DNA of 40,000 bases from an uncultured Clostridiaceae bacterium (GCA_942490885.1 CALNYT010000002.1:5165024-5205023); one strand, 5' to 3'; shown: positions 21,779 through 38,650, counted from the first letter of the stretch. Program-made: numbers and translations. Notes: generated by a model from the letters alone, not told the origin.

Positions 21779-21822
21779 CGAACCAGTTGGTCGGGGGTTC
21801 GAATCCCTTCCAGTGTACCATA
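21779..21822 (+). repeat. attR: duplicated 3' half of tRNA-Arg(ACG)
   Basis: Exact 44-bp copy of 10333-10376. The 5' half of the tRNA is absent here. Confidence 0.9.
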
Positions 21823-21832
21823 AAGAATTGAT

Positions 21833-22583: not shown

Positions 22584-22971
22584 AATATTCGCCTGCCTTT
22601 CTAAAAGGATATATGCAGAACAACATTAAAAATCAGTAATAAAATAAATAAATATTTAATAGGACAAGTAGAATATACATACTGTTCCTATTTTTTTAGC
22701 TCAAATTTCAAGATAAGTATTCTTATTAATAAGTTCACTAGAAAAAAATGGAACAGTGAATTATAGTAAATTTAAAGAAAAATTGAGAAAATACAAGTAA
22801 ATAAGAACAAAACAAGTACGTATGTTTGTTTAAAATGAATTATATTGGTATATAAGCATTGATAAAATTTCACAAAAGGTATAAAATAAAAACAAATGTT
22901 CGATAAAATATTTTTAGTGAAACAAATTTATATATATAAAATATTTATGTAATTTAAAAGGGAGGAATAAA

Positions 22972-23373
22972 ATGAAGGTAATAGATAAAATAAAGGATTA
23001 TAGGAATTTAAGAGCTGAGATTGATAGACTTATAATTGAATTGGAAGAGGTTGAGGACGTTAGCTTAAAAGCTATTCAATATAGAGAAAAATTATCGCCG
23101 ACAAATAAGATTACTTCATGCGTTGAAGATCAAGTGATTAATACTGAGAAGAAAATCACTGATATTAAATCTACAATTAGATGTAAGGAGAGAGAGTTAA
23201 GAAAGATTGATAATGCCCTTACAGTATTAGATGAGAGAGAAGTAGATGTTTTAAAGTTGAAATATATAGAAGGAAAGTCATGGGAAACGGTATGTTATAA
23301 ACTTGATAGATCATATTCAAGAGCAAAACAGATAGAACAGAAGGCATTAGATAAGATATGTCACTTAATATAA
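22972..23373 (+). CDS. Sigma-70 region-4-type late-gene activator (RinA/ArpU/Xpf-like)
   Basis: 133 aa. The C-terminal LDEREVDVLKLKYIEGKSWETVCYKLDRSYSRAKQIEQKALDKI is a sigma region 4 HTH. It is the first gene of the tail cluster. Confidence 0.7.
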   Translation: MKVIDKIKDYRNLRAEIDRLIIELEEVEDVSLKAIQYREKLSPTNKITSCVEDQVINTEKKITDIKSTIRCKERELRKIDNALTVLDEREVDVLKLKYIEGKSWETVCYKLDRSYSRAKQIEQKALDKICHLI

Positions 23374-23418
23374 ATAACTTAATATAAATAACTTAATATA
23401 AATAACTTAAAATAAATA
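23363..23418. repeat. 14-bp tandem repeat (acttaatataaata) x4
   Basis: Three exact copies and one with a single mismatch. The first copy contains the stop codon of the regulator gene. Confidence 0.9.
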
Positions 23419-23423
23419 ATAAA

Positions 23424-23466
23424 CACGATATGTTGCTTAAAAGTAATGCATCGTGCTTATTTTTTT
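23424..23466 (+). terminator. Probable terminator after the regulator gene
   Basis: cacgat...atcgtg stem followed by ttattttttt. Confidence 0.5.
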
Positions 23467-23500
23467 ATTCTTTAGGAAATTGAAAAATTTCCTAAAGAAT
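23467..23500. promoter_or_regulatory. Perfect 15-bp-arm palindrome (candidate operator or hairpin)
   Basis: attctttaggaaatt-gaaa-aatttcctaaagaat. A third half-site, aaatttctaaagaat, lies at 23562-23576. Confidence 0.6.
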
Positions 23501-23589
23501 TTATCACATGTAATATTGCTTATATCAACGGGGTGCATGTTTGTGTAAAATTGTACCAGTTAAATTTCTAAAGAATAAAAAAATGAAGA

Positions 23590-23702
23590 GGTTGTAGGGG
23601 AAGTATTTCCCCTGCCGGTTTAAGAAGGGTGCTCAGCAACGATAGTTGTGTCGAAGGGAAACATAGGTTTCCCTAGCGAAGCGCGTGCAACGCGCCTTTT
23701 TG
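23590..23702 (+). ncRNA. GC-rich multi-hairpin leader ending in an intrinsic terminator (candidate attenuator or antitermination target)
   Basis: Hairpins at 23596-23613 (AGGGGAA/TTCCCCT), 23637-23648, 23655-23674 (AGGGAAAC/GTTTCCCT) and GCGCG-tgcaa-CGCGC plus T5 at 23681-23702. It lies ~100 nt upstream of the first structural-operon gene. Confidence 0.55.
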
Positions 23703-23798
23703 AAATAAATCTATAACTTTTTAATGCTCCTGCATATATCCTTATGAAAGCATAAAACAGTAAAGCTTTCAAAACAAATATAGAGGAGGAATTATATT

Positions 23799-24023
23799 AT
23801 GTCAGTAACAAACACAAGAGTGGACAGTGATTTAATCGTAGGAGTTAAGACTGGAACAAAAAAAACAGGAGGAGATGAGATTAAAAATTTCAGATTCTCA
23901 AAAATTAAGATTGATGCAGCTGATGAAGCTATATATGCAGTAGGTTCAAAAATAGCATCATTGATACCTTATCCAGTAAAGTACATCCAGAGAGTTAATG
24001 ACAATCTTTTGATTAGTGAATAA
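23799..24023 (+). CDS. DUF1659-like small protein
   Basis: 74 aa with a strong RBS GAGGAGG. The pattern (F.FSKIK.DA.DEAIY.V...I..L) and the pairing with a DUF2922-like neighbour support the call. Confidence 0.6.
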   Translation: MSVTNTRVDSDLIVGVKTGTKKTGGDEIKNFRFSKIKIDAADEAIYAVGSKIASLIPYPVKYIQRVNDNLLISE

Positions 24024-24099
24024 TATTAGCAAATCAAAATGGACGGGCTATTTCTAAGAAATCAATAAAAAAAACTATCAAAATAAAAGGAGAGAGATT

Positions 24100-24315
24100 A
24101 TGAAAAAATTAAGCATGAAATTTGTAACTACTAATGATGATATTACAACACTAACTATCAATGAAGTTAGAGAGGACATAAGTGATGAGCAAGTAAATTC
24201 TTTGATGGATGAGATAATTACACAAAATGTATTCTATTCATCAGGTGGATCACTTGTTAAGAAAAAGAGTGCAAAAATTATTGATGTAACAGAAGCTGAT
24301 GTTGAAATTGCATAG
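24100..24315 (+). CDS. DUF2922-like small protein
   Basis: 71 aa. KKLSMKFVT...T.TI.EVREDISDEQVNSLMDEIITQNVF matches the DUF2922 pattern. RBS AAGGAGAG. Confidence 0.6.
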   Translation: MKKLSMKFVTTNDDITTLTINEVREDISDEQVNSLMDEIITQNVFYSSGGSLVKKKSAKIIDVTEADVEIA

Positions 24316-24730: not shown

Positions 24731-25128
24731 ACTAACCTCCATCAATCTAGTAATTTCTACACTGCAGTCATTATAGCATTTAACAGTAAATAAATGGGAA
24801 TATAAAACAGTTATAGTTGTTTTATACCTGTATAAAATGGACGATATAATTAAGTATGGCGAGATAATAATAAATATTATAGAAAAATTAGAGATTAATT
24901 ATATATTTATTCAAAGATAATTGAAATTATTTGGTCTATACTTATATCATGGACAAAATAAAGAAACACATAAGTACTTCACTTATTCAGAGTAATTATT
25001 AAGTCCATTAAGGCGATAATCTTATAAAGTTTTCCAGTTGAAACTAAAGTTATACGTACAGGTCTGAGGTGTCTATGATTTTGATATATGTATAAATCTA
25101 GTTTTTATTTGAAATCTCTATAAAGGAG

Positions 25129-25548
25129 GTGAATGTAAATAAATTGATAGTCAAAGATATTACCATAAACAACATAATAAATAAATTTAAAGAATTAAAT
25201 GATGTTGAAGCATATTTCGGAAAACTTCCAGATGGAGTTGAAGAGCCGAATATGCTTTTTTTAATACCTAAAATAGTTGTTCAGAGTGGGAAAAGTTCAA
25301 ACAAATTGTTCTCATATGATATGAAGATTAGGTTATCAGAATCAGATTTAGCAGCTGCATATGAGAAAGGTGTGGGAATCTTAGACAAAATTGATGTTAA
25401 AAGCTTTCCAGTAAGAATAACAACATTGGAACTAGGGGAAGAAGAATCACAGATAATGATTAATATGAGTTTCTTAGAGGAGAGAGTTAGTCAGCAGCAA
25501 GAGGGAACTAAGATAGGGAAAATAAGTTTTGATACAAAAATAAAATAA
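25129..25548 (+). CDS. Tail-associated hypothetical protein (XkdJ position, upstream of sheath)
   Basis: Assigned by position only. The start is uncertain because GTG 25129 overlaps RBS AAGGAGGTG; an in-frame TTG at 25144 is the alternative. Confidence 0.5.
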   Translation: MNVNKLIVKDITINNIINKFKELNDVEAYFGKLPDGVEEPNMLFLIPKIVVQSGKSSNKLFSYDMKIRLSESDLAAAYEKGVGILDKIDVKSFPVRITTLELGEEESQIMINMSFLEERVSQQQEGTKIGKISFDTKIK

Positions 25549-25570
25549 TTAGAAAGGAAGTGCGATATTT

Positions 25571-26893
25571 ATGGCAGGAGGAACATTTGAAAAAGGAGTT
25601 AGTAAAAGAAGACCAGGTTTATATGTGAATTTTGAGTCAGCTGCATTGTCTAGAATTGAATCAGGTGAAAGAGGAACAGTTGTAATCCCAATAATATGTA
25701 GTTGGGGAGAGAGTAAATCTTTTAAGGTAATAGAAAAAGAGAAAGACGTCTTTGAAAACTTTGGGCATAAAGTTATAGAACCAGAGGTTATTTATATTAG
25801 AGAGGCAATGAAACGAGCAAATAAGGTTATTGCCTATAGATTAAATGATGGAGTTAAAGCAACAGCAACTTGGGGTACACCAGAAACAATTGTAACAGCA
25901 GTACATGGCGGTGTAAAAGGAAATAATATTACAATAAAATGCACTGATATAAGTGCTTCAACTAAAAAAACAGTTGAGACATACTTCAATATGAAACTTG
26001 TAGATGAACAGGTTGTTGAAAATATTGAAGAGTTTAAAGAGAATGGATATGTAACTTTTAGTGGAACTGGAGCAATCAGTGCTACTGCAGGAACTACATT
26101 ATCAGGAGGAACTGATACAAAGGCATCTGATAATGATTATTTAGATTTCATGGATCACAGTGAGGTACAAGAATTTGATACTATTGCATTACCTACTGAT
26201 GAGAGTTCATTAAAAACAATATTTACTAACTTTATTAGAAGATTAAGAGATGATGAAGGCAAGAAGGTTGTTGGGGTATTAAGTAGATTTGATTCTGATT
26301 ATGAAGGAATTATAAATGTTACTAACGGTATAATTCTTGAAGATGGAACTGAGTTAAGCGCAGTTGATAGTACTGTATGGGTTGCAGCTGCTGCAGCTGG
26401 TGCAGATATAACTGAATCTTTAACATATTCAAAGTATACAGGTGCAGTTGATGTTAATCCTAGAAAAACACATAGTGAATATAAAGAAGCATTAAAGAAT
26501 GGAGAATTTGTTTTTCAATTTGATGGGGCTGGGGTTAAGGTAGAGCAAGATATAAACTCACTAAAAAGCTTTACCCCTAATAAAGGGAAAATGTTCTCTA
26601 AGAATAGAATAATGAGAACATTAGATGCTATCAATAATGATCTTACAAGAGTATTTAGAGATAGTTATATTGGAAAGTTAGATAATAATGAAGATGGACA
26701 CGCAGTTTTATCATCAGCAGTAGATAATTATTTCTTAAATCTACAGAATGGTGGCGCAATAAAGAACTTTGTTCCTGGTAAGGATTTTGTGATTGATGTA
26801 AATAAATCAGTTGGTGATGAGGTATATGCAGTGGCAAATATACAGCCAGTAGATAGTATGGAAAAAATCTATTTTGAAGTGAAGATTAATTAA
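25571..26893 (+). CDS. Contractile tail sheath protein (XkdK-like)
   Basis: 440 aa. The N-terminal GGTFEKGVSKRRPGLYVNF is typical of PBSX/clostridial sheath proteins. It is followed by a tube gene. Confidence 0.85.
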   Translation: MAGGTFEKGVSKRRPGLYVNFESAALSRIESGERGTVVIPIICSWGESKSFKVIEKEKDVFENFGHKVIEPEVIYIREAMKRANKVIAYRLNDGVKATATWGTPETIVTAVHGGVKGNNITIKCTDISASTKKTVETYFNMKLVDEQVVENIEEFKENGYVTFSGTGAISATAGTTLSGGTDTKASDNDYLDFMDHSEVQEFDTIALPTDESSLKTIFTNFIRRLRDDEGKKVVGVLSRFDSDYEGIINVTNGIILEDGTELSAVDSTVWVAAAAAGADITESLTYSKYTGAVDVNPRKTHSEYKEALKNGEFVFQFDGAGVKVEQDINSLKSFTPNKGKMFSKNRIMRTLDAINNDLTRVFRDSYIGKLDNNEDGHAVLSSAVDNYFLNLQNGGAIKNFVPGKDFVIDVNKSVGDEVYAVANIQPVDSMEKIYFEVKIN

Positions 26894-26904
26894 TATAGGG
26901 AGGA

Positions 26905-27357
26905 ATGGACATGGCATATAGTACAATGAATACAATTTCAGCAAAAGAGGGTAGATATTTCATTGATGGAGAAGAGGTTTTAAATGGTATTAAACTTGAA
27001 TTGACTGTAGAAAAGCAAAAGGTTGAAGTTAAAAGATTAGGGAAGAGAATGATAGGTCATAGAAGTATAGGACTTAAAGCTACAGGAACAATGACAGAAT
27101 ATCATGCTACTTCAAAATTTGCAGAGATGCTTCAAAGATATAAAGATACTGGTGAAGATGTATATTTAAACGGTGTTGCAATATTAGATGATAAGGCATC
27201 AGGAAGAGGAAAAGAGAAGATTGCTCTTGTAGGAATTAATATTGATTCTGCTAAATTAATCAGTTTGGACGCAGAAGGAGAGCTTATTAAAGATGAACTT
27301 GCATTTACAGTGGAAGATTTCTATATTCAAGGAGATGGACTTAAGGAGCAAGTGTAA
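26905..27357 (+). CDS. Tail tube protein (XkdM-like)
   Basis: ~150 aa, immediately after the sheath gene. The likely start is ATG 26911, 8 nt after GGGAGGA. Confidence 0.8.
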   Translation: MDMAYSTMNTISAKEGRYFIDGEEVLNGIKLELTVEKQKVEVKRLGKRMIGHRSIGLKATGTMTEYHATSKFAEMLQRYKDTGEDVYLNGVAILDDKASGRGKEKIALVGINIDSAKLISLDAEGELIKDELAFTVEDFYIQGDGLKEQV

Positions 27358-27396
27358 AGCGCAGAGTAGTTGCATCTATAAATTATAAATAATAGT

Positions 27397-27428
27397 AAGC
27401 TAGCTTATATAAAATAGGCTAGCTTTTT
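27397..27428 (+). terminator. Intra-operon hairpin plus T-run after sheath/tube genes
   Basis: aagctagc-13 nt loop-gctagctt followed by ttt. Confidence 0.5.
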
Positions 27429-27460
27429 AAATTAAGTGAAAGAAGAAAGGAGCTAATAAC

Positions 27461-27880
27461 ATGGATATAAATTTATTTTTAAAAGGCAAAGAGGAGAATC
27501 TACCAGAGATTGAAAGAGTAGTGACTAAGAGGTATATGAATGAAGAAGGGGAGTACATTCCATTCAAATTTAGAGCAATCGCTTCAAAACGTCTAAATGA
27601 AATAAAAAAGGAATGTACATCTGTAATACACACAAAAGGACAGAAGATTGAGAAGTTCAATAATCAGAGATTTATTAATATGGTTGGTATTGAATCCACG
27701 ATATTTCCTAATTTCAAAGATAGTACATTGTTAGAATCTTATGAATGTATAGATCCAAATGATCTTGTACAAGAAATCCTTAAGATGCCAGGTGAATACT
27801 CAGAATGGGTTGAGACTGCATTTAAGATAAATGGATTTGATGATACATTTGAGGAACTGGTGGAAAAGGGAAAAAACTAA
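27461..27880 (+). CDS. Tail assembly chaperone (XkdN-like), zero-frame product
   Basis: 139 aa between the tube and tape measure genes. It ends ...GGA AAA AAC TAA, which contains the slippery heptamer. Confidence 0.75.
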   Translation: MDINLFLKGKEENLPEIERVVTKRYMNEEGEYIPFKFRAIASKRLNEIKKECTSVIHTKGQKIEKFNNQRFINMVGIESTIFPNFKDSTLLESYECIDPNDLVQEILKMPGEYSEWVETAFKINGFDDTFEELVEKGKN

Positions 27881-28050
27881 TAAAGAGCGGTGATTTTTTT
27901 GCAGTCTTTTTTCACCGCTTATTTCAAAAACATCATATATTACCGCAAACTTTCTATGAGATGGATGAATACCATAGAGCGTTGATAATTGCCAGTGAAA
28001 AGATTGCAATCGAGGAAGAGGATAAGGAGATGGCAAGAATGAGGAGGTGA
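27461..28050 (+). CDS. Tail assembly chaperone, predicted -1 frameshift fusion (join 27461..27877, 27877..28050; ~196 aa)
   Basis: Slippery A_AAA_AAC at 27871-27877. The -1 frame is open from the slip site to TGA 28048-28050. A 9-bp stem lies at 27885-27893 pairing with 27912-27920. The extension ends 4 nt before the tape measure start. Confidence 0.6.
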
Positions 28051-28054
28051 AATT

Positions 28055-29647
28055 ATGGCTAAACTAACAAATCTAGTGAACATTTGGAACGATGTAGGCA
28101 CAGCTATTGATTCTGCATCTAAGAGGATACAGGAGTTTGATAATAGGGTTAATGGAATAATGTCAACGGCAAACAATGTCACCATTGCAGTTGATGTGGC
28201 AGGAGAAAGTGCAATTATTAGTGAAATAACATCAGCCTATTCTGAAATAGGGGCGGCAACAGCTTCATTAATAGGGGATGTTGCAGCAAGTGCTAATAAG
28301 ATGTATAAAGCTTTTGAACCAAAGTTAAATAAGATTAAGCATAAGTTCTCAACCACATTTGAACCTTTGGTTACAAAAGTAGAAGATATTACAAGTAAAA
28401 TTGCAGATGCCTTTGAGCCATTGGTATCAAAGGTTGGATCAGTTACAAGTAAAATAGGTACTAAGGTAGCTGAAGCATTAGAGCCACTAAAAACAAAAGC
28501 TGAATCTGTAGTAGAAAGTGTAAATAAGAAACTCAATAGTTTGAAAGAAAAGATAAAGGTGAAATTTGCAGTAGATCAGAATGTGGACTATGCTTCCATG
28601 GATCAGGTTGCAGCCGCAGCAGAGAATATGGGAACATCAGCTGTAGGGGTTATAAAGTCGACTGCTGATGTCAATAAGAATGCATTGGCAACCAGAGGTA
28701 ATTATCTGGCAACAGTTGAGAATGCTGAAGGACTTAGGCAATCTATCGGAGCTACATGGGAAGCCATAACAGCAAATGATGCTTCAGAGGAAGCAATTAT
28801 GAATGCTGTTATAGCAACTAAAGAATCAATAATAGCAACTAAAGAGAGTATAGTGAAAACAATTACTTCAGCTCAAGAAACATGGAACTCAGTTGGGGCA
28901 ATGAAGCAATCAATAGGAACAGCATGGGAATCAGTAAAAGCATTTAAGAATGTGGCAGCATCAACAAAAGCTGCAGCTATAGCTCAGAAAATATTCAATT
29001 TCATTATGAACTTAAATCCAATAATTCTTATAGTTACAGCGGTTATGCTCTTGGTAGGTGCTCTTATTTATCTATATACTCATAGTGAGACTGCTAGAAA
29101 GATTATGGATAAACTGTGGAGTGGAATGAAAAAAGGGGCTGAGGTCGCAATAAACGGAGTTATAAAGGTCATTAATTTCTTTATAAGGGCTTTAAATAAA
29201 ATAAAGTTACCTGATTGGCTTGGAGGTGGAGGATTTGACATCAAGGAGATAAACGAGGTCAAATTTACAGATCCAGAAAAGGAAAAGAAGATGATAGATA
29301 AGGCATCAGGAGCAAAGGAAGAGGAATATGTATCAAAGATTAAGGAACCACCTTCAATAGGAATTCAAGAAGAGACACCTAATATTAATAACAGTTTGGA
29401 AATGAGTAATTTGGATATGACATCTGCTAGTAACCTATCACCAACAGAAACAGATAATATGATGCAATCAACTTCATCAGTAAAAAATTACGACAACAGC
29501 AGTAGTAATAATTATGAAATCCAAAGTCTAATTGGACAAGTAAATGTTACTAAAGAAGCTGATGAGGATAGATTAATTACTAAGTTAGAAGATATGCTTA
29601 AGAGTGAACTGGATACAGGAGGTGCTTATGCTTATGCAGGAGTATAA
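28055..29647 (+). CDS. Tail tape measure protein (XkdO-like)
   Basis: 530 aa, alpha-helical and Ala-rich with internal repeats. One TM-like segment (PIILIVTAVMLLVGALIYLY). Position follows the chaperone. Confidence 0.8.
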   Translation: MAKLTNLVNIWNDVGTAIDSASKRIQEFDNRVNGIMSTANNVTIAVDVAGESAIISEITSAYSEIGAATASLIGDVAASANKMYKAFEPKLNKIKHKFSTTFEPLVTKVEDITSKIADAFEPLVSKVGSVTSKIGTKVAEALEPLKTKAESVVESVNKKLNSLKEKIKVKFAVDQNVDYASMDQVAAAAENMGTSAVGVIKSTADVNKNALATRGNYLATVENAEGLRQSIGATWEAITANDASEEAIMNAVIATKESIIATKESIVKTITSAQETWNSVGAMKQSIGTAWESVKAFKNVAASTKAAAIAQKIFNFIMNLNPIILIVTAVMLLVGALIYLYTHSETARKIMDKLWSGMKKGAEVAINGVIKVINFFIRALNKIKLPDWLGGGGFDIKEINEVKFTDPEKEKKMIDKASGAKEEEYVSKIKEPPSIGIQEETPNINNSLEMSNLDMTSASNLSPTETDNMMQSTSSVKNYDNSSSNNYEIQSLIGQVNVTKEADEDRLITKLEDMLKSELDTGGAYAYAGV

Positions 29648-30263
29648 TGAGAAATTTAATTATGAAATATGGATAAAGTCCTTGGATAGAAGAAGGAAGT
29701 ATAGGTTACCGGTAAATCCAGAAAAAATTGATATTACATCCAAGTCAAGGAATAAGAAAATAGACTTGATGTCTGTTGGAGAAGCAACACTTTTAAATAA
29801 GAAAGGTCTTATAGAAATAAAACTATCATCAATATTACCTAAAAGGTATGGCCCTTATTGTGAGTATACTGATATACCTAATCCATGGGAGGTTGTTGAG
29901 TTTATTGAAGAGAACAGAGGGGTATTACCTTTATGGTTTGTGATAACAAATACATCAATAAATATGTTGGTCACTGTGGAGAATTTATCTTTCAAAGAGA
30001 AAAGTGGAGATGTTGGAACATTACATTATGATATGACAGTTAAAGAGTTTAGGAATCTTTCTCTTCCAGGAAGTAAAGGGATTGTATTGAATGGTCCAAT
30101 GAGTAAGAACAATAAAGAAAGAGAATACAAAATTAAAGCAGGGGATTACCTAAAAAAGATTGCTAGGGATTTAGGGATTGATGATTGGACAAAAATTGCT
30201 GAGATCAATAATATTAAAGCACCATACACCATATATACAGGGGAGGTTTTAAGATTACCATGA
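29628..30263 (+). CDS. LysM-domain tail protein (XkdP-like)
   Basis: C-terminal LysM YKIKAGDYLKKIARDLGIDDWTKIAEINNIKAPYTIYTGEVLRLP. The ORF track start is 29604; ATG 29628 or 29634 follows GGAGGTG. Confidence 0.75.
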   Translation: MLMQEYNEKFNYEIWIKSLDRRRKYRLPVNPEKIDITSKSRNKKIDLMSVGEATLLNKKGLIEIKLSSILPKRYGPYCEYTDIPNPWEVVEFIEENRGVLPLWFVITNTSINMLVTVENLSFKEKSGDVGTLHYDMTVKEFRNLSLPGSKGIVLNGPMSKNNKEREYKIKAGDYLKKIARDLGIDDWTKIAEINNIKAPYTIYTGEVLRLP

Positions 30264-31228
30264 TAAGTGTATTTTGTGGTAGGGGAGAGAAAACCTATGA
30301 TATTAGCAATGTAATAAAAAATGTATCCGTAAAAGGAGAGATATCAAAGGCGTGCAGAGAGCTGACTTTAGATATCTCTGGTGAAATTACAGGGTTGCCA
30401 TATTTAAAAGAAGGAGCTTGCATTCTATTTAAAGTTGAAGATAAAGAAGTTTTTCAGGGATTTGTCTTTTCAGTTGGAAACAGTAAAGGAGAAGACCTAA
30501 AGGTAAAATGTTATGACATGGGAATATATCTAAAAAAGAATAAACAGACTTACAAATTCAATAACAAAAAAGCATCAGATATTATCAAAATCATATGCAC
30601 AGATTTCAGTATTCCTATGGGAGAGGTTGATGATAGTGGGTTTAATATAAAAACCTTAATACTAGAGAATAAAACTTTGTTTGATAGTATTAAGAGTGCC
30701 ATTGAGATGACCTTTAAGCAGACTGGTAAGAAATATAGACTATTCTCTAGAATGGGAAAAATATTTTTTAAAGAGATTGATACTCCTAAGCAAGCAATAA
30801 TAATTGAAGAAGGAGCAAACCTTATAAGTATTGATTACACAACTTCAATTGATGATTTAAAGAATAGAGTGAAGTTAGTGAAAGAAGTTTCTAAGGATAA
30901 TGATGATGATGTGAAATCAGATAATAAGGAATTACAAGAGCAGTTTGGGGTTCTTCAGTACTTTGAAAAGGTTAAGGAGAATGTTAATAAAGCGCAGATG
31001 AATGAGCGAGCAGATAAACTATTGAAGGAAAAAAGCAAGAAGAAAGAAGAAGTGAGGTTAAAAGCATTAGGTAATATAGAGGTATCCAGTGGGGAGATTA
31101 TATTTATATCCTCTCCAGCTATAGATACAGAAGGATATTTTAAGGTAGTACAAGATGACCATACATTTAATAATGGAGAGCATATGATGTCACTTAAGGT
31201 TGAGAGGAGTGATATTAATGATGATTGA
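30260..31228 (+). CDS. Baseplate hub / tail protein (XkdQ-like)
   Basis: 322 aa with an ATGA overlap to the LysM gene. Assigned by position and size in the PBSX-type order. Confidence 0.65.
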   Translation: MISVFCGRGEKTYDISNVIKNVSVKGEISKACRELTLDISGEITGLPYLKEGACILFKVEDKEVFQGFVFSVGNSKGEDLKVKCYDMGIYLKKNKQTYKFNNKKASDIIKIICTDFSIPMGEVDDSGFNIKTLILENKTLFDSIKSAIEMTFKQTGKKYRLFSRMGKIFFKEIDTPKQAIIIEEGANLISIDYTTSIDDLKNRVKLVKEVSKDNDDDVKSDNKELQEQFGVLQYFEKVKENVNKAQMNERADKLLKEKSKKKEEVRLKALGNIEVSSGEIIFISSPAIDTEGYFKVVQDDHTFNNGEHMMSLKVERSDINDD

Positions 31229-31529
31229 TATTATAAAAGAAGCAGCCATTGAAGCTGTAGAAGGTATGAATCCTATGAAATTATATATTGGAACAGTTAC
31301 TAGCTGTTTACCAGATATAAGAATAGCTTTAAATAATAACAATAAAATTGTTTTAGATAGAGAAGATCTTTTTATACCTAAGAGGATTACAGAATTAAAA
31401 GGCAAAGTAAGGATTAACGATACAGATAAAAGTGTGGAAGTTCAGGTAGCACCTAAAGTTGGAGATAAGGTAGCGGTTATGCGAATACAAGGAGGTCAGC
31501 AATATTTTCTTATGGATATTGTTGAGTAA
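31218..31529 (+). CDS. Baseplate spike/plug protein (XkdR-like, DUF2577-type)
   Basis: ~103 aa, with the ATG 8 nt after GAGAGGAG. Assigned by position. Confidence 0.6.
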   Translation: MMIDIIKEAAIEAVEGMNPMKLYIGTVTSCLPDIRIALNNNNKIVLDREDLFIPKRITELKGKVRINDTDKSVEVQVAPKVGDKVAVMRIQGGQQYFLMDIVE

Positions 31530-31554
31530 AGATAAGAGCAATTGGAGGGGTGAG

Positions 31555-31962
31555 ATGAATATAATACCCAACATGAATATTAAAAGTGATACTGAATATG
31601 AAAGTATCTATAGAAAGACATATGGAATAGACTTTGAAAAGGGAAGAATAAGTGGGGTTGTTCAGGGAAAAGAAGCTGTAAAACAGTATATTCATAAGGT
31701 TATTAAGACAAATAAAGGTGCTTATGATATATATACTGACTACGGAAGTGACCTTGAGGAATTGATAGGTGATTCACCCACTGAAAATTTATTGATCAGT
31801 GATGTTAAGAGAGAGATAAAAGATACTTTAATAAAAAATAAAGATATTAATAAGGTGTATGATTTTAAATTCTTCTTTCTAGAGGATAATAGAGAATCTT
31901 TGATGGTAAAATTCAAGGTTGATACTGTATTTGGAGAGATTAATGTAAAGGAGGTGTTGTAA
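31555..31962 (+). CDS. Baseplate wedge protein (XkdS-like, gp25/W-type)
   Basis: ~135 aa, with an ATG after GGAGGGG. Assigned by position before the baseplate J gene. Confidence 0.6.
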   Translation: MNIIPNMNIKSDTEYESIYRKTYGIDFEKGRISGVVQGKEAVKQYIHKVIKTNKGAYDIYTDYGSDLEELIGDSPTENLLISDVKREIKDTLIKNKDINKVYDFKFFFLEDNRESLMVKFKVDTVFGEINVKEVL

Positions 31963-32984
31963 TGTTCAGCAAATCATTTGATGATATTATGGATGAAATG
32001 AAATTAAATGTGCCAACAGGAATGGATGGAAGAGAAGGATCTATATTGTATGATGCCCTAGCACCAATAGCTTTAGCTCTTGAAAAGGCATATATGGATA
32101 TGGATAGCATTATAGAATTAGCTTTTGCTGAAACTAGTAATGGTGAATATTTAGGTATGAGGGCAGAGGAATTTGGTGTATCAAGAAAGGAAGCTCAACG
32201 ATCAATAATTCAGGGACAGTTTAATTTGGAAGTACCAATAGACAGTAAGTTTTATGTAGAGGGATTATCTTTTACAGTATTTGAAAGTGGAAAACTTATA
32301 TGTGATACTTCAGGGAAGATTTCAAATATTGAAGGGAAGGAGCTTATCCCTGTAAACAATATTGAAGGTTTAACTACTGCATCTGTAACAAAAATAATAT
32401 TCTCAGGAGAGGATGAAGAAAGTGATGAAGAGCTATTAAAGCGGCTGCATCATAAAGTAAGAAACCCTGTAACGAGCGGGAATATTGGTCACTATAAGTT
32501 ATGGGCTAATTCTGTTAATGGTGTGGGTGATTGTAGGATAATTCCCAAATATGATGGTGTTGGAACAGTGAAGGTTATAGTGATAGATAATAATAAGCAA
32601 CCTCCAGCAGACTGTGTTGTTAAGAATGTGAATGATTATATTGATAAAGTTAGACCAATTGGTGTTGATGTTGCAGTTGTGAAAGCAAAAGGGGTTAGTA
32701 TTGATGTTCAATGTACTTTGAAGGTTAGTGAAGGAGCAAATGTAGAGGATATTAAATCAAGAATTATTGATAATATTGAAGAGTATTTAAGGAGTATAGC
32801 TTTTAAGGTGAATGAGGTTAGATATTCTAGAATATTGAATAATATATTTCAAGTTGAAGATGTGGAAGACTGCATCAATCTTGTAATAAGCAGTGATGAT
32901 ACTACACAGAAAGATAATAATAATATTATATTAAATACTGATGAAGTTGCAGTTATTGGGCAGGTGATATTCCATGAATCTTAA
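31962..32984 (+). CDS. Baseplate J-like protein (XkdT-like)
   Basis: 340 aa with a Baseplate_J-like N-terminus (REGSILYDALAPIALAL...). Translationally coupled to its neighbours. Confidence 0.75.
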   Translation: MFSKSFDDIMDEMKLNVPTGMDGREGSILYDALAPIALALEKAYMDMDSIIELAFAETSNGEYLGMRAEEFGVSRKEAQRSIIQGQFNLEVPIDSKFYVEGLSFTVFESGKLICDTSGKISNIEGKELIPVNNIEGLTTASVTKIIFSGEDEESDEELLKRLHHKVRNPVTSGNIGHYKLWANSVNGVGDCRIIPKYDGVGTVKVIVIDNNKQPPADCVVKNVNDYIDKVRPIGVDVAVVKAKGVSIDVQCTLKVSEGANVEDIKSRIIDNIEEYLRSIAFKVNEVRYSRILNNIFQVEDVEDCINLVISSDDTTQKDNNNIILNTDEVAVIGQVIFHES

Positions 32985-33495
32985 GGATATGGCACCTCCT
33001 TTTTTATACGAAATTTCTGAGATAAAAGAGATATATGATAAATCTCAGTTTGCTTATAACAACTTGACTAATGCTATTGAAGATTTAAATAATCAATGTT
33101 TCGTTAAAAAGAGTACTAAAGGAAAAGGTCTTGATGAATGGGAAAAGTTCTTGGATATTTATGAGAATAAAAAAGAAGGTGAACAGTTCAGACGAGAGGC
33201 TATAGTTGCAAAAATACAGGGGAATGGAGCGATAACTAAAGCAAAGCTCAAGGAGATAGCAGGTAACTTCTCAGGTGGAACTATAGATATAATTGAGGTG
33301 CCTAGGGAAGGTAAATTCATAATTAAATTCATTGATAAGGATGGAATACCAGAAAATATAAATGGATTTAAAAGTCTGATTGATAGCTTAATCCCAGCCC
33401 ATCTTGATTATGAAATACAGTATAAGTATCTTATATGGGGTATAGTAGAGGACAAAACATGGCAAGATGTAGAGAATGTTCTTTGGGGAACTTAA
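32974..33495 (+). CDS. Baseplate/tail-fibre adaptor (XkdU-like, DUF2313-type)
   Basis: 173 aa overlapping the J-like gene. Assigned by position before the fibre gene. Confidence 0.6.
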   Translation: MNLKDMAPPFLYEISEIKEIYDKSQFAYNNLTNAIEDLNNQCFVKKSTKGKGLDEWEKFLDIYENKKEGEQFRREAIVAKIQGNGAITKAKLKEIAGNFSGGTIDIIEVPREGKFIIKFIDKDGIPENINGFKSLIDSLIPAHLDYEIQYKYLIWGIVEDKTWQDVENVLWGT

Positions 33496-33551
33496 AGGAT
33501 GAGATTTAAAATAGAAGAAATTGAACAAAAAAGTAATAATGGAGGTGTTTT

Positions 33552-35603
33552 ATGAAAAATACAACACATTACAATTTAAAAAAGCCTGATAGAACTGATG
33601 TTATAAAGATAGATGATCTAAATTATAACGTAGATGTTATTGATGGTGAGTTAAATAAAAGAGCTCTTAAAACTGACATTCCATCCGAATTACCTGCGGA
33701 TGGAGGTAATGCAGATACAATTGGAGGAAAAAGTCCATCTGATTTTGCAACAATTCAGCAAGGCATGAAGGCAGATACAGCACTTCAATCCGATAAGCTA
33801 GGAAAATCAGGGGGAGCAGCTAAACATGATCAGCTTATCTCAGATTATTATAAGAAGAATGAAGTAGATGGGAAAATATCTGCTGAGGTGAATAGGGTTG
33901 ATGCACAAATGGCTGAAATTATGTCGCAACAGTTTGATACTAAAACTTACAAAGAGAGTTTTAATAAACTTGAAAATTGTGAGGGTGGGAGTTTAGCTGT
34001 TGAGAAGATTAAAGGTAGAACTTTAGCACCATTAGTAATCTTAAATAATGCAACGGACTGGTGGGGATGGTTCAGTTCTACTCTTATAGAAGATAGTACA
34101 GACATGTTTATGGGACTTCCTAGTATAAAATCTACTATAGCAAATGGTGGTTGTGCTGTGGGTGCATATCAAAATATAAAGAATTACATTACTGTGGGTA
34201 AAAGTTATTTCTCTAGTATCTATGTAAAGAAGAGTAACTTAGATTTCACTGTCCAACTTCGTGTTAGAATTATATATAATGATGGCACAACAGAAGATTG
34301 GAATTATTCTGAAACGCACAGTTTAACTGATAATTTCTATAGGCTAGGCGTTAAGTTTAAAGCAACAAAGACAGTTCAGGATATTTACATTTATGTTCAA
34401 AATAGTTCTACGGCCGTTGCTGATATGTCATTTAAACTTGTTGCTTACTCATTATATGAAATCCCTATTGAAGATTATATTTTATCTGAACAAGAACTCT
34501 TAGAAAAATATCCTTATGTTAGCGATATCCAGGGGAGCTTGATACGCAATATAAAGACATTGGGTAAAAACTTATTTAATAAAAATTCAAATTATAAACA
34601 GTATAATAATACATCACTTGATATTACAAGTACAGGATTTATATTAAAAACAACCTCTAAGAATATTGGTGCAGGTATAATTGATATGCAAATAAAAGTT
34701 AGGAAAAACACGCAGTACTCTCTCAGCTCTACTTCAATATTTATAAGTGGTCAAGAAGATTCTTATACTGGTAGAATTGAAATCTCTGATTATCCTATAA
34801 AAAAAATTATTGGTTATATTCCTAAAGAAAATAATCATACATATTTTAACAGTGGCAATAATAGCATAATCAATATTAGATTCTTAACAAGAGGAAACAA
34901 TTCCAATCTAAATAAAGTTGAATTTAAAAATATTCAATTTATAGAAGGTTCTATAGCACCAACAGGATACACACCATATGAAGAACACTCAGAAGATATT
35001 GGAGTAGAACTACATGGAATTAACGGAATTCATGACGAGATAGTGAACAATACAGTTATATTCCGTAATAAGGAAACTCTGCTAAATGGCTCTGAGACAT
35101 GGGAAATGACTGGCTATACAACTACAAATACAAATGCATTTAGAATTAACAAAGATGATATCGCAAACATTAATATTTTATGTGATAAATTTATTGTTGA
35201 GCCCAATTGGACTGATTTTAAAAATCAAGATAAAGAATGTATTTTATTTGCAAATTCTAACAATAAACTATACATTAGGATTAATAAAAATAAAGCAACA
35301 GATTTAGCAACATTTAAAACGTGGTTATCTACAAATAATACTAAGGTTGTTTATAACACAAAAGAAGAATTTTATACAGTTGAAGTCCTTGAGGATTTTA
35401 ATAATAACTTGAAAGCCTTTAAAGATGGACATATGATAGTTGAATATGAAGGTATGTGTCCTGAAATAACTGCAACATACGCTATTAATATAGCCGCAGT
35501 TAGAGAAAGTATGGCAGATATGACTAAGACTAATGCTGACCAGATTAATAATATTTGGGATGCATTATTTTTAATTACAAAAGAAATACAAGCATTAAAA
35601 TAA
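33552..35603 (+). CDS. Tail fibre / receptor-binding protein
   Basis: 683 aa. The N-terminus has the conserved fibre anchor THYNLKKPDRTDVIKIDDLNYNVDVID. The N/S/T-rich beta-type body is typical of receptor-binding proteins. Confidence 0.8.
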   Translation: MKNTTHYNLKKPDRTDVIKIDDLNYNVDVIDGELNKRALKTDIPSELPADGGNADTIGGKSPSDFATIQQGMKADTALQSDKLGKSGGAAKHDQLISDYYKKNEVDGKISAEVNRVDAQMAEIMSQQFDTKTYKESFNKLENCEGGSLAVEKIKGRTLAPLVILNNATDWWGWFSSTLIEDSTDMFMGLPSIKSTIANGGCAVGAYQNIKNYITVGKSYFSSIYVKKSNLDFTVQLRVRIIYNDGTTEDWNYSETHSLTDNFYRLGVKFKATKTVQDIYIYVQNSSTAVADMSFKLVAYSLYEIPIEDYILSEQELLEKYPYVSDIQGSLIRNIKTLGKNLFNKNSNYKQYNNTSLDITSTGFILKTTSKNIGAGIIDMQIKVRKNTQYSLSSTSIFISGQEDSYTGRIEISDYPIKKIIGYIPKENNHTYFNSGNNSIINIRFLTRGNNSNLNKVEFKNIQFIEGSIAPTGYTPYEEHSEDIGVELHGINGIHDEIVNNTVIFRNKETLLNGSETWEMTGYTTTNTNAFRINKDDIANINILCDKFIVEPNWTDFKNQDKECILFANSNNKLYIRINKNKATDLATFKTWLSTNNTKVVYNTKEEFYTVEVLEDFNNNLKAFKDGHMIVEYEGMCPEITATYAINIAAVRESMADMTKTNADQINNIWDALFLITKEIQALK

Positions 35604-35621
35604 TTAAAGAGGTGATTATAT

Positions 35622-35726
35622 ATGAATAGAAAATTTGAAACACTTGAAGATCTTGAAGCTTTTTTATTAGAGAAGGGAGTCGGTGGAATCACAGAAGTAC
35701 TGACAAAAGAAGTAAGGCAAACATAA
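35622..35726 (+). pseudogene. Disrupted copy of the small coiled-coil gene that follows the fibre gene
   Basis: MNRKFETLEDLEAFLLEKGVGGITEVL... matches the first ~27 aa of ORF 36969..37169 and stops at 35724. A coiled-coil continuation (KEENKKLTEENLSLKLALAEQAE...) lies in the +1 frame. Confidence 0.6.
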
Positions 35727-35862
35727 AGAAGAGAATAAAAAACTTACAGAAGAAAATTTAAGTTTGAAATTAGCACTTGCAGAGCAGGCAGAGAGTGAAA
35801 TGAATGATAAATTAGAACTACAACTAGTAATAGCAGAATTAAGTCAAGGAGGGAATGTATGT

Positions 35863-36003
35863 ATGATGATTAAGTTGTATGCTGATTTATTAGAAGGAGA
35901 TTTAAGAAGTTTAGAAAAAATTGAGGGTAAAATACAAGTACCTTTAAAGTACAGAGACAGTGTAAAACAAGAATTAATTAATCGTGGATTTATTGTACAA
36001 TAG
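35863..36003 (+). CDS. Small 46-aa protein (XkdX position), copy 1
   Basis: ATG 9 nt after AAGGAGGG. MMIKLYADLLEG... is paralogous to MLKTYLVDMLVR... at 37169. The ORF track merges it with the upstream frame (35764..36003). Confidence 0.5.
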   Translation: MMIKLYADLLEGDLRSLEKIEGKIQVPLKYRDSVKQELINRGFIVQ

Positions 36004-36120
36004 GAAAATGTATAGTTAATTTGTCAAAACAGAATATTACAAAGTGCAAAAAAATTGACATATCAAACCTAATAAGTTATTATATACATTAACAGACAAT
36101 AATTTCAAGGAGGGGTATTT

Positions 36121-36630
36121 ATGTTAAAAAGAAAAATAGCTTCAAAAATTTTATTACCTAGTATGATGGCACTATTATTTATATTTTTAACTTTCACTTC
36201 AGCGTTTGCTTATGCAGGTTATGTGCCAATAACTGACCAAAAATATGAAGTAGAAAGTAATGATACAGAAACAACGGCTAATATTATACCTTTTAATGGG
36301 CAGTATACTATAGTTAAAGCGGCATATAGTCATTATGGGGATGAAGATTATTTTATTTTTGCATGTGGAGAAGATAGACATATGATATTAAGGTTTTATC
36401 CTTTAACTGGTAATACGCCTATAAGTAAAACTGCACCATTCTATATTATGATAGAAGATAGATTAACAGGCGAGATGATACATGCTAATGGGATGAAACA
36501 AGTTGGTAAAACAGAAACAATAGAATTTTCTGGTAAGGCAGGACATACTTATTCAATTTTCATAGGTAAAGAGGGAGTAGCGGGAGAGCATATAGGCGCT
36601 AGATATTCTATAGGTATATGGGGTAGATAA
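36121..36630 (+). CDS. Secreted PPC (pre-peptidase C-terminal)-like domain protein
   Basis: Signal peptide (KILLPSMMALLFIFLTFTSAFA-YA). EVESNDTETTAN...GDEDYFIF matches the PPC-domain signature. It has its own TTGACA/TATTAT promoter-like boxes (36055-36083) and a strong terminator. Confidence 0.65.
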   Translation: MLKRKIASKILLPSMMALLFIFLTFTSAFAYAGYVPITDQKYEVESNDTETTANIIPFNGQYTIVKAAYSHYGDEDYFIFACGEDRHMILRFYPLTGNTPISKTAPFYIMIEDRLTGEMIHANGMKQVGKTETIEFSGKAGHTYSIFIGKEGVAGEHIGARYSIGIWGR

Positions 36631-36647
36631 ACACAATAACATAATTT

Positions 36648-36695
36648 AAAACAAAGAGTAGGAACTATATAGTTTTCTACTCTTTTGTTTTAAAT
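36648..36695 (+). terminator. Rho-independent terminator
   Basis: A ~18-bp stem, aaaacaaagagtaggaact...agttttctactcttttgtttt. Confidence 0.8.
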
Positions 36696-36701
36696 ATATA
36701 T

Positions 36702-36950
36702 GCCACAATAGAAGATTTTTATGAAACCAAAGTAATTAAAGATTTCTACAATAAAATACCTTGCTTTAAAGATGGACATATAATAGTTGAATATGAAGGT
36801 ATGTGTCCTGAAATAACTGCAACATACGCTATTAATATAGCCGCAGTTAGAGAAAGTATGGCAGATATAACCAAGACTAATGCTGACCAGATTAATAATA
36901 TTTGGGATGCATTATTTTTAATTACAAAAGAAATACAAGCATTAAAATAA
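36702..36950 (+). pseudogene. 3' remnant (83 codons) of a second tail-fibre allele
   Basis: ATIEDFYETKVIKDFYNKIPCFKDGHIIVEYEGMCPEITATYAINIAAVRESMADITKTNADQINNIWDALFLITKEIQALK* aligns with the C-terminus of the 683-aa fibre. The last ~187 bp are nearly identical at the nucleotide level. Confidence 0.85.
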
Positions 36951-36968
36951 TTAAAGAGGTGATTATAT

Positions 36969-37169
36969 ATGAATAGAAAATTTGAAACACTTGAAGATCT
37001 TGAAGCTTTTTTATTGGAAAAAGGGGCTGGAGGAGTTACAGAAGTATTAGTTTCGGAACTAAAAAAGAAAGATACTGAGATTGAAACTTTAAAAGAAGAT
37101 AAATCAGCAGATAGAATAAGAATTCAATCTTTGGAAGATGCGATGCTCGAACAGGAGGGGTTGATCTAA
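36969..37169 (+). CDS. Small coiled-coil protein following the fibre module (intact copy)
   Basis: 66 aa with RBS AAGAGGTG. The N-terminus is duplicated at 35622. Confidence 0.6.
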   Translation: MNRKFETLEDLEAFLLEKGAGGVTEVLVSELKKKDTEIETLKEDKSADRIRIQSLEDAMLEQEGLI

Positions 37170-37348
37170 TGTTAAAAACATATTTAGTTGATATGCTAGT
37201 AAGAAAGATAACTAAGAAAGAAATTAATAGTAAAACTAAGGAAGCATACAAAGTTACGGATATTAAAATTCAGGAATATAGAGTAGTTGTACAATCAAAA
37301 CTGGATGAAATGATAGCAACAGAGATTGCAGAGAAAATTATAACATAA
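37169..37348 (+). CDS. Small 59-aa protein (XkdX position), copy 2
   Basis: Below the size range of the ORF track. A TAATG overlap with the upstream stop suggests translational coupling. Translation: MLKTYLVDMLVRKITKKEINSKTKEAYKVTDIKIQEYRVVVQSKLDEMIATEIAEKIIT*. Confidence 0.5.
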   Translation: MLKTYLVDMLVRKITKKEINSKTKEAYKVTDIKIQEYRVVVQSKLDEMIATEIAEKIIT

Positions 37349-37482
37349 TTAAGAATATTTTAAAAAGAAGTACTCTTTTCACTTAAGAAAAAATATTTGA
37401 TTATCTTAGCTTGAATCAAAATAAAGTTAGGTTAATGATAGAAGCGGTTTTAAATGATTATCAACACTCAAAGGAGGTAATA

Positions 37483-37704
37483 ATGGAAAAATTAATAGTA
37501 ATGGCTTTACAACAAGGGCTCGGATACGGGCTCTTTGTTTTTTTACTTATTTATATATTAAAGAAACAGGAAGATAGAGATAAGTTTTCTGATATGCGAG
37601 AAGAGAGATATCAGGAAATAATAGGAGAGCTTACTGCAAGTTTGAATATTGTAGAGGATGTTAAGAAGGATGTTGAAGATATTAAAGATTATCTGGGGAG
37701 GTGA
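37483..37704 (+). CDS. BhlA/UviB-family holin-like protein
   Basis: MEKLIVMALQQGLGYGLFVFLLIYILKKQEDRD... has a single N-terminal TM and a charged coiled tail, as in BhlA/UviB. ATG follows AAGGAGG (the ORF track starts earlier, at 37411). Confidence 0.7.
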   Translation: MEKLIVMALQQGLGYGLFVFLLIYILKKQEDRDKFSDMREERYQEIIGELTASLNIVEDVKKDVEDIKDYLGR

Positions 37705-37708
37705 TAGG

Positions 37709-38314
37709 GTGAAGATTATAGAAAGTGGTCTGAAGTTTAATAGTAAGCTTGATAAGAGAGCAAAAACATCATTGATTGTTATACACCATGCAGAGGCAAC
37801 AGAATGTACTATAGAGGATATTCATAGATGGCATTTAGACTACAGATGGAGTGGATGTGGGTATCATTATTTTATAAAAAAAGACGGTAGTGTATATAGG
37901 GGGAGACCAGAAGCTTCAATTGGTGCACACTGCCTAGGAAATAATAACCAATCAATAGGGATATGTCTTGAAGGAAATTTTAATAAAGAAGAGATAAAGA
38001 ATAAACAAAGTAATGTGCTTGTTAAGCTATGTAAAAACATTATGACCAGATATGATATTGAAGAAATTAGAGGGCATAAAGAACTATTCCAAACTGATTG
38101 TCCTGGGAAGAATTTTCCACTTGAAGAGATAAAGAAAAAAATACACACAAAAAACCATATAGATATATTAGGTTTACAGAAATACATGAATAGAAATGGA
38201 GTCACTGATTATGAAAATAAAAGACTCAATGAGGATGGAATTTTAGGAAATAGAACTCAAAGTGCTTTTGAAAAACTATGTAGATATATAAAAGAAGAAA
38301 ATATTAAAAGATAA
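37709..38314 (+). CDS. N-acetylmuramoyl-L-alanine amidase (Amidase_2/PGRP fold) with C-terminal PG-binding repeat
   Basis: LIVIHHAEA, GYHYFI, GAHCLGNN...CPG motifs. C-terminal DGILGNRTQSAFEKL resembles PG_binding_1. GTG follows GGGGAGGTG. Confidence 0.85.
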   Translation: MKIIESGLKFNSKLDKRAKTSLIVIHHAEATECTIEDIHRWHLDYRWSGCGYHYFIKKDGSVYRGRPEASIGAHCLGNNNQSIGICLEGNFNKEEIKNKQSNVLVKLCKNIMTRYDIEEIRGHKELFQTDCPGKNFPLEEIKKKIHTKNHIDILGLQKYMNRNGVTDYENKRLNEDGILGNRTQSAFEKLCRYIKEENIKR

Positions 38315-38326
38315 GGAGAGATTGAT

Positions 38327-38650
38327 ATGAGTGATTTATTTAATTTTGTATGGGAATGTAGATTTATTATAGTTCTTTTAATAAATATATTGATATATGC
38401 TTTTCTTGAGTGGGAAAAATTCAAGAGAGAAGCATATAAATATATGCTTGCAGCAAAAAAGTTAGCAAAAGATGCTATATTAAATTCAGGAGAAGAACAA
38501 CAAGAATGGGTTATAGAAAAGATTTTAAAAGTATCACCTAAGGGTATAACTATTTTTTTAGGTGAGGAAAGATTGAAAAGTATTATAAAAGGCCTATATG
38601 ATAATATGAAAGATTTACTGGATGATGGAGAATTGAATGAAAGTTTCTAG
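38327..38650 (+). CDS. Small membrane protein of the lysis module (function unknown)
   Basis: 107 aa with one N-terminal TM (FIIVLLINILIYAFL). RBS AAGGAGAG. It is the last gene of the tail cluster. Confidence 0.5.
   Translation: MSDLFNFVWECRFIIVLLINILIYAFLEWEKFKREAYKYMLAAKKLAKDAILNSGEEQQEWVIEKILKVSPKGITIFLGEERLKSIIKGLYDNMKDLLDDGELNESF

Follow-up and report, generated by a model that had tools for sequence, protein, structure and literature searches.

A head-less XkdK-type contractile tail cluster in a marine Clostridiaceae chromosome, probably a domesticated R-type tailocin

Here we describe a gene cluster of ~16 kb within a 40,000-nucleotide stretch of chromosome from an uncultured Clostridiaceae bacterium (GCA_942490885.1, CALNYT010000002.1:5165024-5205023; the whole stretch is called the window below). 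We propose, with a probability of roughly 0.72, that it encodes a chromosomal, domesticated R-type tailocin, a contractile phage tail-like bacteriocin, of an Oceanirhabdus-like Clostridiaceae host. Its ancestor would be an XkdK/PBSX-type myophage, from which the modules for head, packaging, replication and integration disappeared ahead of the divergence of the present species. It would be a further member of a kind of tailocin that is already known, not a new kind; particle production and killing are what we infer from its genes.

Tail genes without a head module

Scans of the cluster's open reading frames (ORFs) against Pfam and PHROGs, and against solved structures in PDB, recovered a full contractile-tail set in positions 25144-35603 (Table 1). 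The tail genes from sheath to fibre all lie on the + strand in close packing; the 12 structural genes and the two lysis genes are each intact, with little space between them. A first-pass annotation of the window had listed a complete tail, baseplate, fibre and lysis set, and every gene that it named was found where it had been placed, the fibre by weak matches. Homologues are present for all ten proteins of diffocin, the tailocin of Clostridioides difficile (CD1359-CD1376), that have been resolved by cryo-electron microscopy (collar, sheath, tube, tape measure, tube-tail, hub, spike, sheath initiator, TRI-2 and TRI-1), plus a fibre; the spike match is weak.

Profiles were built from relatives for the large terminase, portal, MuF, scaffold/protease, capsid, DUF3199, DUF3599, gp10-like and YqzN proteins. 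None of these head, packaging and connector profiles matched in the six-frame translation of the whole 40-kb window, where the collar profile alone gave a match (6e-7); neither head genes nor vestiges of such genes were detected in the 40 kb. Similarly, hidden Markov model searches and family scans found no capsid, portal, terminase, head-tail adaptor, replication or integration genes in the cluster. The absence of head and packaging genes claimed in the first-pass annotation therefore holds for the window, with the correction that one head-proximal gene, the collar, is present, as tails require. Indeed, the cluster is cut exactly at the head-tail boundary, with the collar kept. This gene was recognised through its relatives: its family matches the ~147-aa family found 5' of the sheath in related loci (hhalign probability 97.7%, E 2.4e-12), and that pre-sheath family in turn matches the diffocin collar CD1362 over its full length (1.5e-8). 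A fold search for the collar was abandoned, as the AlphaFold2 model built from a 4-sequence alignment was too poor (predicted local distance difference test score, 56.5), and the gene was instead assigned by comparing profiles with each other and by a profile search of PDB.

Two features of the assembly genes deserve mention. The chaperone gene carries the slippery heptamer A_AAA_AAC (27871-27877), with a TAA stop codon immediately 3', and its -1 frame is open for 57 codons (27877-28050), reaching the start of the tape-measure gene. Since the heptamer and a clearly homologous extension are kept in five relatives (L084, L085, L086, L088 and L089), the programmed -1 frameshift that had been predicted for this chaperone is, judged by conservation, real and retained. 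The tape measure had also been called short for its lineage, and in fact the interval between the chaperone and the LysM/hub genes (1754 bp) is the shortest of 78 loci, the other 77 related loci having 1952-6278 bp (median 3142 bp). The diffocin tape measure has 817 aa, against 530 aa here, and goes with 32 sheath layers (PMC10996793); by length scaling from diffocin, a tail of ~80 nm with about 20 sheath layers is predicted for the window.

The descent of the locus can be followed in two further lineages. Proteins of Oceanirhabdus sp. W0125-5 (Clostridiaceae) join the window's serS product and sigma-like protein in 90%-identity clusters, and DNA identity between the two genomes is 81-87% across common regions, so that the host is a distinct but related species; we regard it as a marine, Oceanirhabdus-like member of the Clostridiaceae. 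W0125-5 keeps the glucosaminidase gene (85% nucleotide identity), the sigma-like gene, the DUF1659 and DUF2922 genes and the minus-strand P-loop gene, all at 82-87% identity, and lacks window positions 24951-37644 (12.7 kb). Its left junction falls just after the promoter-like site at 24921-24950 and its right junction ~15 codons before the end of the holin gene, with two amidase fragments persisting beyond. These junctions and fragments indicate that an ancestral cluster was deleted from W0125-5, and not that the cluster was inserted into the window genome. In addition, a metagenomic contig from a third lineage (L087), whose sheath is 88% identical, has the order DUF1659, DUF2922, P-loop gene, collar and sheath, and with it the head-less junction seen in the window. 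For the sheath, comparison of the window with L087 gives a ratio of nonsynonymous to synonymous substitution rates (dN/dS) of 0.115 at a dS of 0.57. Thus, the head-less state appears to predate these lineages, with the sheath under purifying selection since. Across the three lineages we find a fixed chromosomal locus, vertical inheritance and selection, and the cluster is, as far as these comparisons tell, ancestral and maintained rather than a fresh remnant, which argues for a kept function over decay. The preference of the first-pass annotation for a domesticated phage-tail-like bacteriocin over a prophage, drawn from gene content, flanks and the lack of head genes, is strengthened by the L087 junction, the selection on the sheath, the W0125-5 deletion and the intact head-plus-tail prophages in which the nearest sheath relatives are found.

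Table 1. Features of the cluster and its surroundings (window positions; aa, amino acids)
Feature	Position	Strand	Evidence or remark
Separate island in tRNA-Arg 3' end, 11.4 kb	10375-21824	- (recombinases)	bounded by 46-nt repeat of tRNA 3' end, 10331-10376 / 21779-21824
Glucosaminidase-domain protein, 158 aa	22107-22583	-	left neighbour of cluster; Pfam Glucosaminidase 3e-24; PHROG endolysin families
Promoter-like site TTGATA-17-TAAAAT (22859-22887), then LexA-box-like sequence	22859-22901	+	candidate SOS operator of activator gene
Sigma-70 region-4-like protein, 133 aa, phage-type late transcription activator	22972-23373	+	Pfam Sigma70_r4 5.6e-8; phrog_36 5.5e-22; phrog_248 'transcriptional activator'
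Clostridiales-2 small RNA motif	23580-23661	+	Rfam RF02937, 72 bits (gathering score 58.6); own terminator 23681-23695
DUF1659 protein, SroA-like, 74 aa	23799-24023	+	Pfam 1.3e-17; conserved in W0125-5 and L087
DUF2922 protein, SroB-like, 71 aa	24100-24315	+	Pfam 2.8e-23
P-loop-like ORF, 155 aa	24278-24745	-	3'-truncated form of 214-aa gene intact in L087 and W0125-5
Promoter-like site TTGAAA-18-TATCAT, 5' of tail operon	24921-24950	+	last sequence common to W0125-5 before deletion junction
Collar / tail terminator, 134 aa	25144-25548 (mechanical ORF start 25129)	+	profile comparisons
Tail sheath, XkdK type, 440 aa	25571-26893	+	four sheath domains (Pfam); phrog_279 3e-120
Tail tube, XkdM type	26911-27357 (matched ORF 26905-27357)	+	Pfam DUF2001 1.3e-35
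Tail assembly chaperone, XkdN type	27461-27880; with -1 extension 27461-28050	+	Pfam Phage_TAC_5 6e-35; PDB YqbN 2e-30
Tape measure protein, 530 aa	28055-29647	+	several PHROG tape-measure families
Tube-tail (tube initiator) domain fused to C-terminal LysM, XkdP type	29634-30263 (matched ORF 29604-30263)	+	Pfam LysM
Baseplate hub, XkdQ/YqbQ type, 322 aa, without hydrolase domain	30260-31228	+	Pfam YQBQ 1.4e-85
Central spike candidate, DUF2577 / XkdR type	31218-31529 (matched ORF 31200-31529)	+	Pfam DUF2577 4e-18
Sheath initiator, gp25 / XkdS type	31555-31962 (matched ORF 31519-31962)	+	Pfam Sheath_initiator 6e-23; CD1370 9e-12
Baseplate wedge, Baseplate_J (XkdT; diffocin TRI-2 type)	31962-32984	+	Pfam 1e-53; CD1371 4.9e-33
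Baseplate wedge, Mu Gp48-like (XkdU; diffocin TRI-1 type)	32974-33495	+	Pfam 5e-24; CD1372 3e-6
Tail fibre / receptor-binding protein, 683 aa	33552-35603	+	weak phrog_6782 'tail fibre' match 8e-9; mainly position
Frameshifted copy of orf66-like gene and 79-aa ORF (35764-36003)	35624-36003	+	
Secreted 169-aa protein, moron-like insert	36121-36630	+	own strong promoter-like site 36055-36083
Remnant of older fibre C-terminus, ~81 codons	36706-36950	+	
Two small ORFs, 66 and 59 aa, between fibre remnant and holin	36969-37348	+	no family (Pfam, PHROGs)
BhlA-family holin	37411-37704 (true start likely near 37483)	+	Pfam Holin_BhlA 8.5e-22
N-acetylmuramoyl-L-alanine amidase endolysin	37709-38314 (mechanical ORF start 37658)	+	Pfam Amidase_2 1.2e-21; PDB 6srt 4.5e-36
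ORF, 107 aa, hydrophobic N-terminus	38327-38650	+	final gene before pepF (pepF start 38777)

Tail lineage and comparison with known systems

Diffocin is likewise a head-less contractile-particle locus in a clostridial chromosome. It is SOS-inducible and released by lysis (PMC6088184, PMC10996793), and a review of clostridial tailocins names diffocin as the one head-less R-type tailocin that is well documented in Gram-positive bacteria (PMC10538166). The two tails, however, differ in type. The 440-aa sheath matches DSY3957 and Lin1278 at ~1e-110 (8.6e-111 and 1e-106, respectively), against 3e-29, over the C-terminal part only, for the 354-aa CD1363 of diffocin, and the tube is likewise closer to XkdM (2e-34) than to CD1364 (5.6e-4). 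The hub is fused to a peptidoglycan hydrolase in diffocin (CD1368, 581 aa) but hydrolase-free in the window, where it aligns to residues 12-317 only of that protein (2e-16). Unlike its diffocin counterpart, the tube-tail protein has a LysM domain; its N-terminus matches CD1367 (6e-15), and neither it nor the hub has a PDB match outside diffocin. The search of solved structures also returned no non-diffocin best match for the sheath initiator, the Baseplate_J protein and the Gp48-like protein, and no diffocin match for the chaperone. In PDB, the DUF2577 family profile matches the diffocin spike CD1369 best, though weakly (E 1e-3), and the fibres of the two systems share no detectable similarity. 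The cluster would work as diffocin does, but its sheath and tube scores, and a hub that has no hydrolase, place it outside the diffocin lineage; by these profile comparisons its tail is of XkdK/PBSX type and was domesticated independently of diffocin. Of the diffocin/PBSX lineage suggested in the first-pass annotation, the PBSX half is thus upheld and the diffocin half is not.

The Bacillus defective prophages PBSX, PBSZ and PBP180 agree with the window in the order and the families of their tail genes (XkdK, M, N, O, P, Q, R, S, T and U-like), with sheaths 43-44% identical to that of the window. Release by holin and amidase, and a sigma-like late activator, have been proposed for PBSX and the window alike, but the holin of the window is of the BhlA type, unlike that of PBSX, and the activator has no tblastn similarity anywhere in the PBSX loci. 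PBSX-type loci of Bacillus keep terminase, portal, protease and capsid genes, all absent from the window, and PBSX packages DNA, filling small heads with it. Since PBSX has head genes, the term 'PBSX-like' fits the tail lineage of the window only.

Closer in organisation are clusters of the same sheath lineage in Paenibacillus glycanilyticus (L088) and Brevibacillus fluminis (L089), which are head-less and have host metabolic genes directly 5' of the collar. Their collar gene (~149 aa) stands, as does the shorter one of the window, before the genes for sheath, tube, chaperone, tape measure, LysM protein, hub and the remaining parts, and the sheaths are 50-52% identical to that of the window. 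Unlike in the window, a YqzN/YkzM-type gene separates collar and sheath in these clusters, the tape measures have ~1000 aa and the fibres are different; they lack the module of activator, DUF1659 and DUF2922 genes, and their hosts belong to a different bacterial order. About nine more loci show the same pattern (L003-L006, L008-L010, L012 and L013), with metabolic or regulatory genes of the host next to the collar and no head genes within 10 kb in a profile screen, and head-less XkdK-type clusters therefore seem to be common in Paenibacillaceae. The phage tail-like bacteriocin of Brevibacillus laterosporus, purified as particles, has an XkdK-like sheath and goes with a BhlA holin (PMC9406221). 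The prophages of Clostridium beijerinckii described as R-type tailocins are myophage-derived and give tail-like killing particles on induction; these elements are ~40 kb long and keep integrase, regulatory, capsid and packaging genes (PMC10538166), whereas the much smaller cluster of the window has no integrase, capsid or packaging genes. The Clostridium histolyticum tailocin was rejected as a close comparator, being an F-type particle according to a preprint.

Among relatives with long contigs, the three closest sheaths (54-56% identity) all belong to complete head-plus-tail modules, in the order terminase, portal, MuF, scaffold, capsid, adaptors, collar, YqzN and sheath. The best sheath among species-representative genomes is 52% identical, and megablast of the cluster against 50,697 phage records gave no match. 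Clostridium phage Makh22 was considered as a head-less record and ruled out, as it is a partial genome with a major head protein.

The cluster would thus represent an independent domestication, from a tail lineage other than that of diffocin, in a marine genus of the Clostridiaceae. Taken with the head-less clusters of Paenibacillus and Brevibacillus, this points to XkdK-type tailocins being commoner in Firmicutes than the literature reflects. The useful features of the cluster are the shortest tape-measure interval of the lineage, an orphan receptor-binding protein and a sister species that serves as a natural deletion comparator, and in practical terms it may offer a new scaffold and receptor-binding protein for engineered bacteriocins.

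The receptor-binding region has a history of its own. The N-terminal ~45 aa of the fibre are similar to the fibre starts of related loci, and a search of 5.8 billion proteins found no full-length homologue, returning the fibre alone. A 283-bp direct repeat with 96% identity (35417-35699 and 36764-37046) flanks the 79-aa ORF and the secreted 169-aa protein, its second copy being part of the remnant of an older fibre C-terminus. Moreover, the small gene 3' of the intact fibre is frameshifted, and the copy 3' of the fibre remnant is intact. It looks as if the receptor-binding cassette was replaced in the past, and the old C-terminal remnant left behind is what would be expected if specificity is diversifying. 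The secreted 169-aa protein belongs to no family in Pfam, PHROGs, NCBIfam or PADLOC.

Upstream regulation and a possible mode of action

The sigma-like activator proposed in the first-pass annotation was found as a region-4-like protein of the short, phage late-regulator type, and not as a full sigma factor. Its only domain is a sigma region-4-like helix-turn-helix (HTH), it is matched best by PHROG families of phage regulators and activators, and a search returned three close orthologues only. Homologues in C. difficile and C. perfringens myophages stand after RusA/Ant and directly before terS. A place right before the small terminase gene is usual for late-operon activators, and this protein was probably the late activator of the ancestral phage. 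Directly after its promoter-like site lies a LexA-box-like sequence on the - strand, CGAACATTTGTTT. In W0125-5 the half-sites of this box are conserved and its 4-nt spacer is different, as expected of a LexA box, so that position and conservation make the candidate box a lead. Control of the tail operon by the activator, and SOS induction, are plausible. A repeated motif considered as a possible promoter element, AATTATAGATT, was dropped for lack of enrichment (80 found vs 98 expected).

From these elements we can propose how the tailocin would work. DNA damage would relieve LexA at the box overlapping the late-activator promoter (22859-22901), and the activator would then switch on the tail operon from the region near 24921-24950, plus the downstream lysis genes. 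The chaperone and its -1 frameshift product would hold the tape measure, which would template polymerisation of the tube, beginning at a baseplate made of the tube-tail/LysM protein, hub, spike, sheath initiator and two wedge proteins. The sheath would polymerise round the tube, the collar would cap both, and the tape measure would set the tail at the predicted length. The BhlA holin and the amidase would lyse the producer cell and release the particles, whose fibre would bind a surface receptor of related cells; contraction of the sheath would then drive the tube through the envelope and collapse the membrane potential.

The genes between activator and tail invite a further speculation. The DUF2922 gene is constrained (dN/dS 0.08-0.13 vs relatives) and has no tblastn match in phage records. 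A DUF1659/DUF2922 pair of Staphylococcus aureus, SroAB, is the chief target of SigS, a sigma factor on which it exerts feedback (bioRxiv 10.1101/2022.10.19.512975). Perhaps the host recruited the late activator and the DUF1659/DUF2922 pair of the window as a regulatory module that responds to DNA damage and survives the loss of the tailocin. We hold this idea to be a long shot; if true, it would explain three constrained genes in a tail-deleted sister species and would link tailocin control to an SroAB-like feedback circuit, none having been described for any tailocin. The P-loop-like ORF overlaps the end of the DUF2922 gene in the window, where it has probably lost its 3' end. A Clostridiales-2 motif lies between the activator and DUF1659 genes, inside a ~300-bp segment missing at the W0125-5 locus, and near it (23352-23421, 23467-23500) lie a 14-bp tandem repeat in four copies and a perfect palindrome of 15 nt.

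Competing explanations and genomic setting

Several observations weigh against a maintained tailocin under SOS control. The sister species W0125-5 discarded the cluster, which is thus dispensable; the second head-less lineage is known from a 3.4-kb contig only; and the search for head genes covered a 40-kb window out of a 5.28-Mb genome. LexA-like boxes are not enriched in the window (9 found vs 6.6 expected). In addition, the tail-less W0125-5 retains the activator, DUF1659 and DUF2922 genes, strongly constrained (sigma dN/dS 0.06), and in none of 80 related tail loci does this module lie within 10 kb of the tail, so the module may be independent of it.

Some of these points would fit a non-functional prophage remnant, in which the head half of a PBSX-type element has been deleted and the tail half decays without a selected role. 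The loss of the cluster from the sister species has no obvious consequence, debris is found at the locus (the fibre remnant, the frameshifted small gene and the truncated P-loop gene), and the collar evolves fast (65% identity, dN/dS 0.39). We nevertheless consider a remnant unlikely, as all structural and lysis genes are intact and closely packed, the frameshift signal is preserved, and the sheath has stayed under constraint since its split from a lineage that was already head-less. It is less probable again that the tail module partners with heads encoded elsewhere, in a split PBSX-like or gene-transfer-agent-like system or with capsid-forming satellites. Such a partner could be sought in the element with integrase, prim-pol, capsid and both terminase genes at the adjacent tRNA-Arg site of W0125-5, in the small-terminase-like HTH fragment of the tRNA-Arg island of the window, or beyond the 40 kb searched. 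Yet no head-tail adaptor genes (DUF3199, DUF3599, gp10-like or YqzN) stand beside the collar, the island of the window has no capsid, portal or large terminase, and the satellite-like element sits in the genome that lacks the tail. The least probable alternative, to which we give very little weight, is an Afp/PVC-type extracellular contractile injection system, which would deliver a protein toxin instead of acting as a pore-forming bacteriocin. The sheath-tube-baseplate architecture is common to both, and the cluster includes the unexplained secreted 169-aa protein; however, the AAA+ assembly ATPase, cap and toxin payload genes of those systems were absent from Pfam and PHROG scans of all cluster ORFs, the sheath, tube and chaperone are of the phage XkdK/XkdM/XkdN type, and a phage holin-endolysin release module is present. 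A domesticated R-type tailocin thus remains our preferred explanation.

The flanks, which had been read as a tRNA island and glucosaminidase on one side and pepF on the other, fit a tailocin, with the refinement that the separate 11.4-kb island, with recombinases and a small-terminase-like fragment, lies between tRNA-Arg and the glucosaminidase gene. This island contains two full and one truncated tyrosine recombinase ORFs (- strand), a 616-aa tetratricopeptide repeat protein, the small-terminase-like HTH fragment (15679-16185) and a PDC-M04 candidate defence pair (20170-20859 and 20878-21408; PADLOC 3.9e-88 and 2.2e-62). The tail cluster lies outside this island and its attachment-site repeats. 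An old prophage end near pepF was also considered, and a third copy of the tRNA-Arg attachment site was looked for there and not found.

The window has a G+C content of ~29%, and its first 10.4 kb hold housekeeping genes, a T-box leader, serS, five tRNA-Ser genes, cheX and tRNA-Arg. The T-box leader (6713-6907, + strand; Rfam, 127 bits) lies 5' of serS, and such leaders are usual upstream of aminoacyl-tRNA synthetase genes in Firmicutes. In W0125-5 (CP115913.1), the element at the same tRNA-Arg site (L083 438-9168) has integrase, repressor-like HTH, prim-pol, capsid, and small and large terminase genes; it is phage-satellite-like, has no tail genes and adjoins the deleted tail locus of that genome. 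To the right of the deleted locus (L083 12481-18110) lies a lanthipeptide cluster with a RamC/LanC-like kinase-cyclase, a peptidase and four 50-aa precursor genes. In the window its position is occupied by pepF; the antagonism genes at this site differ between the two species.

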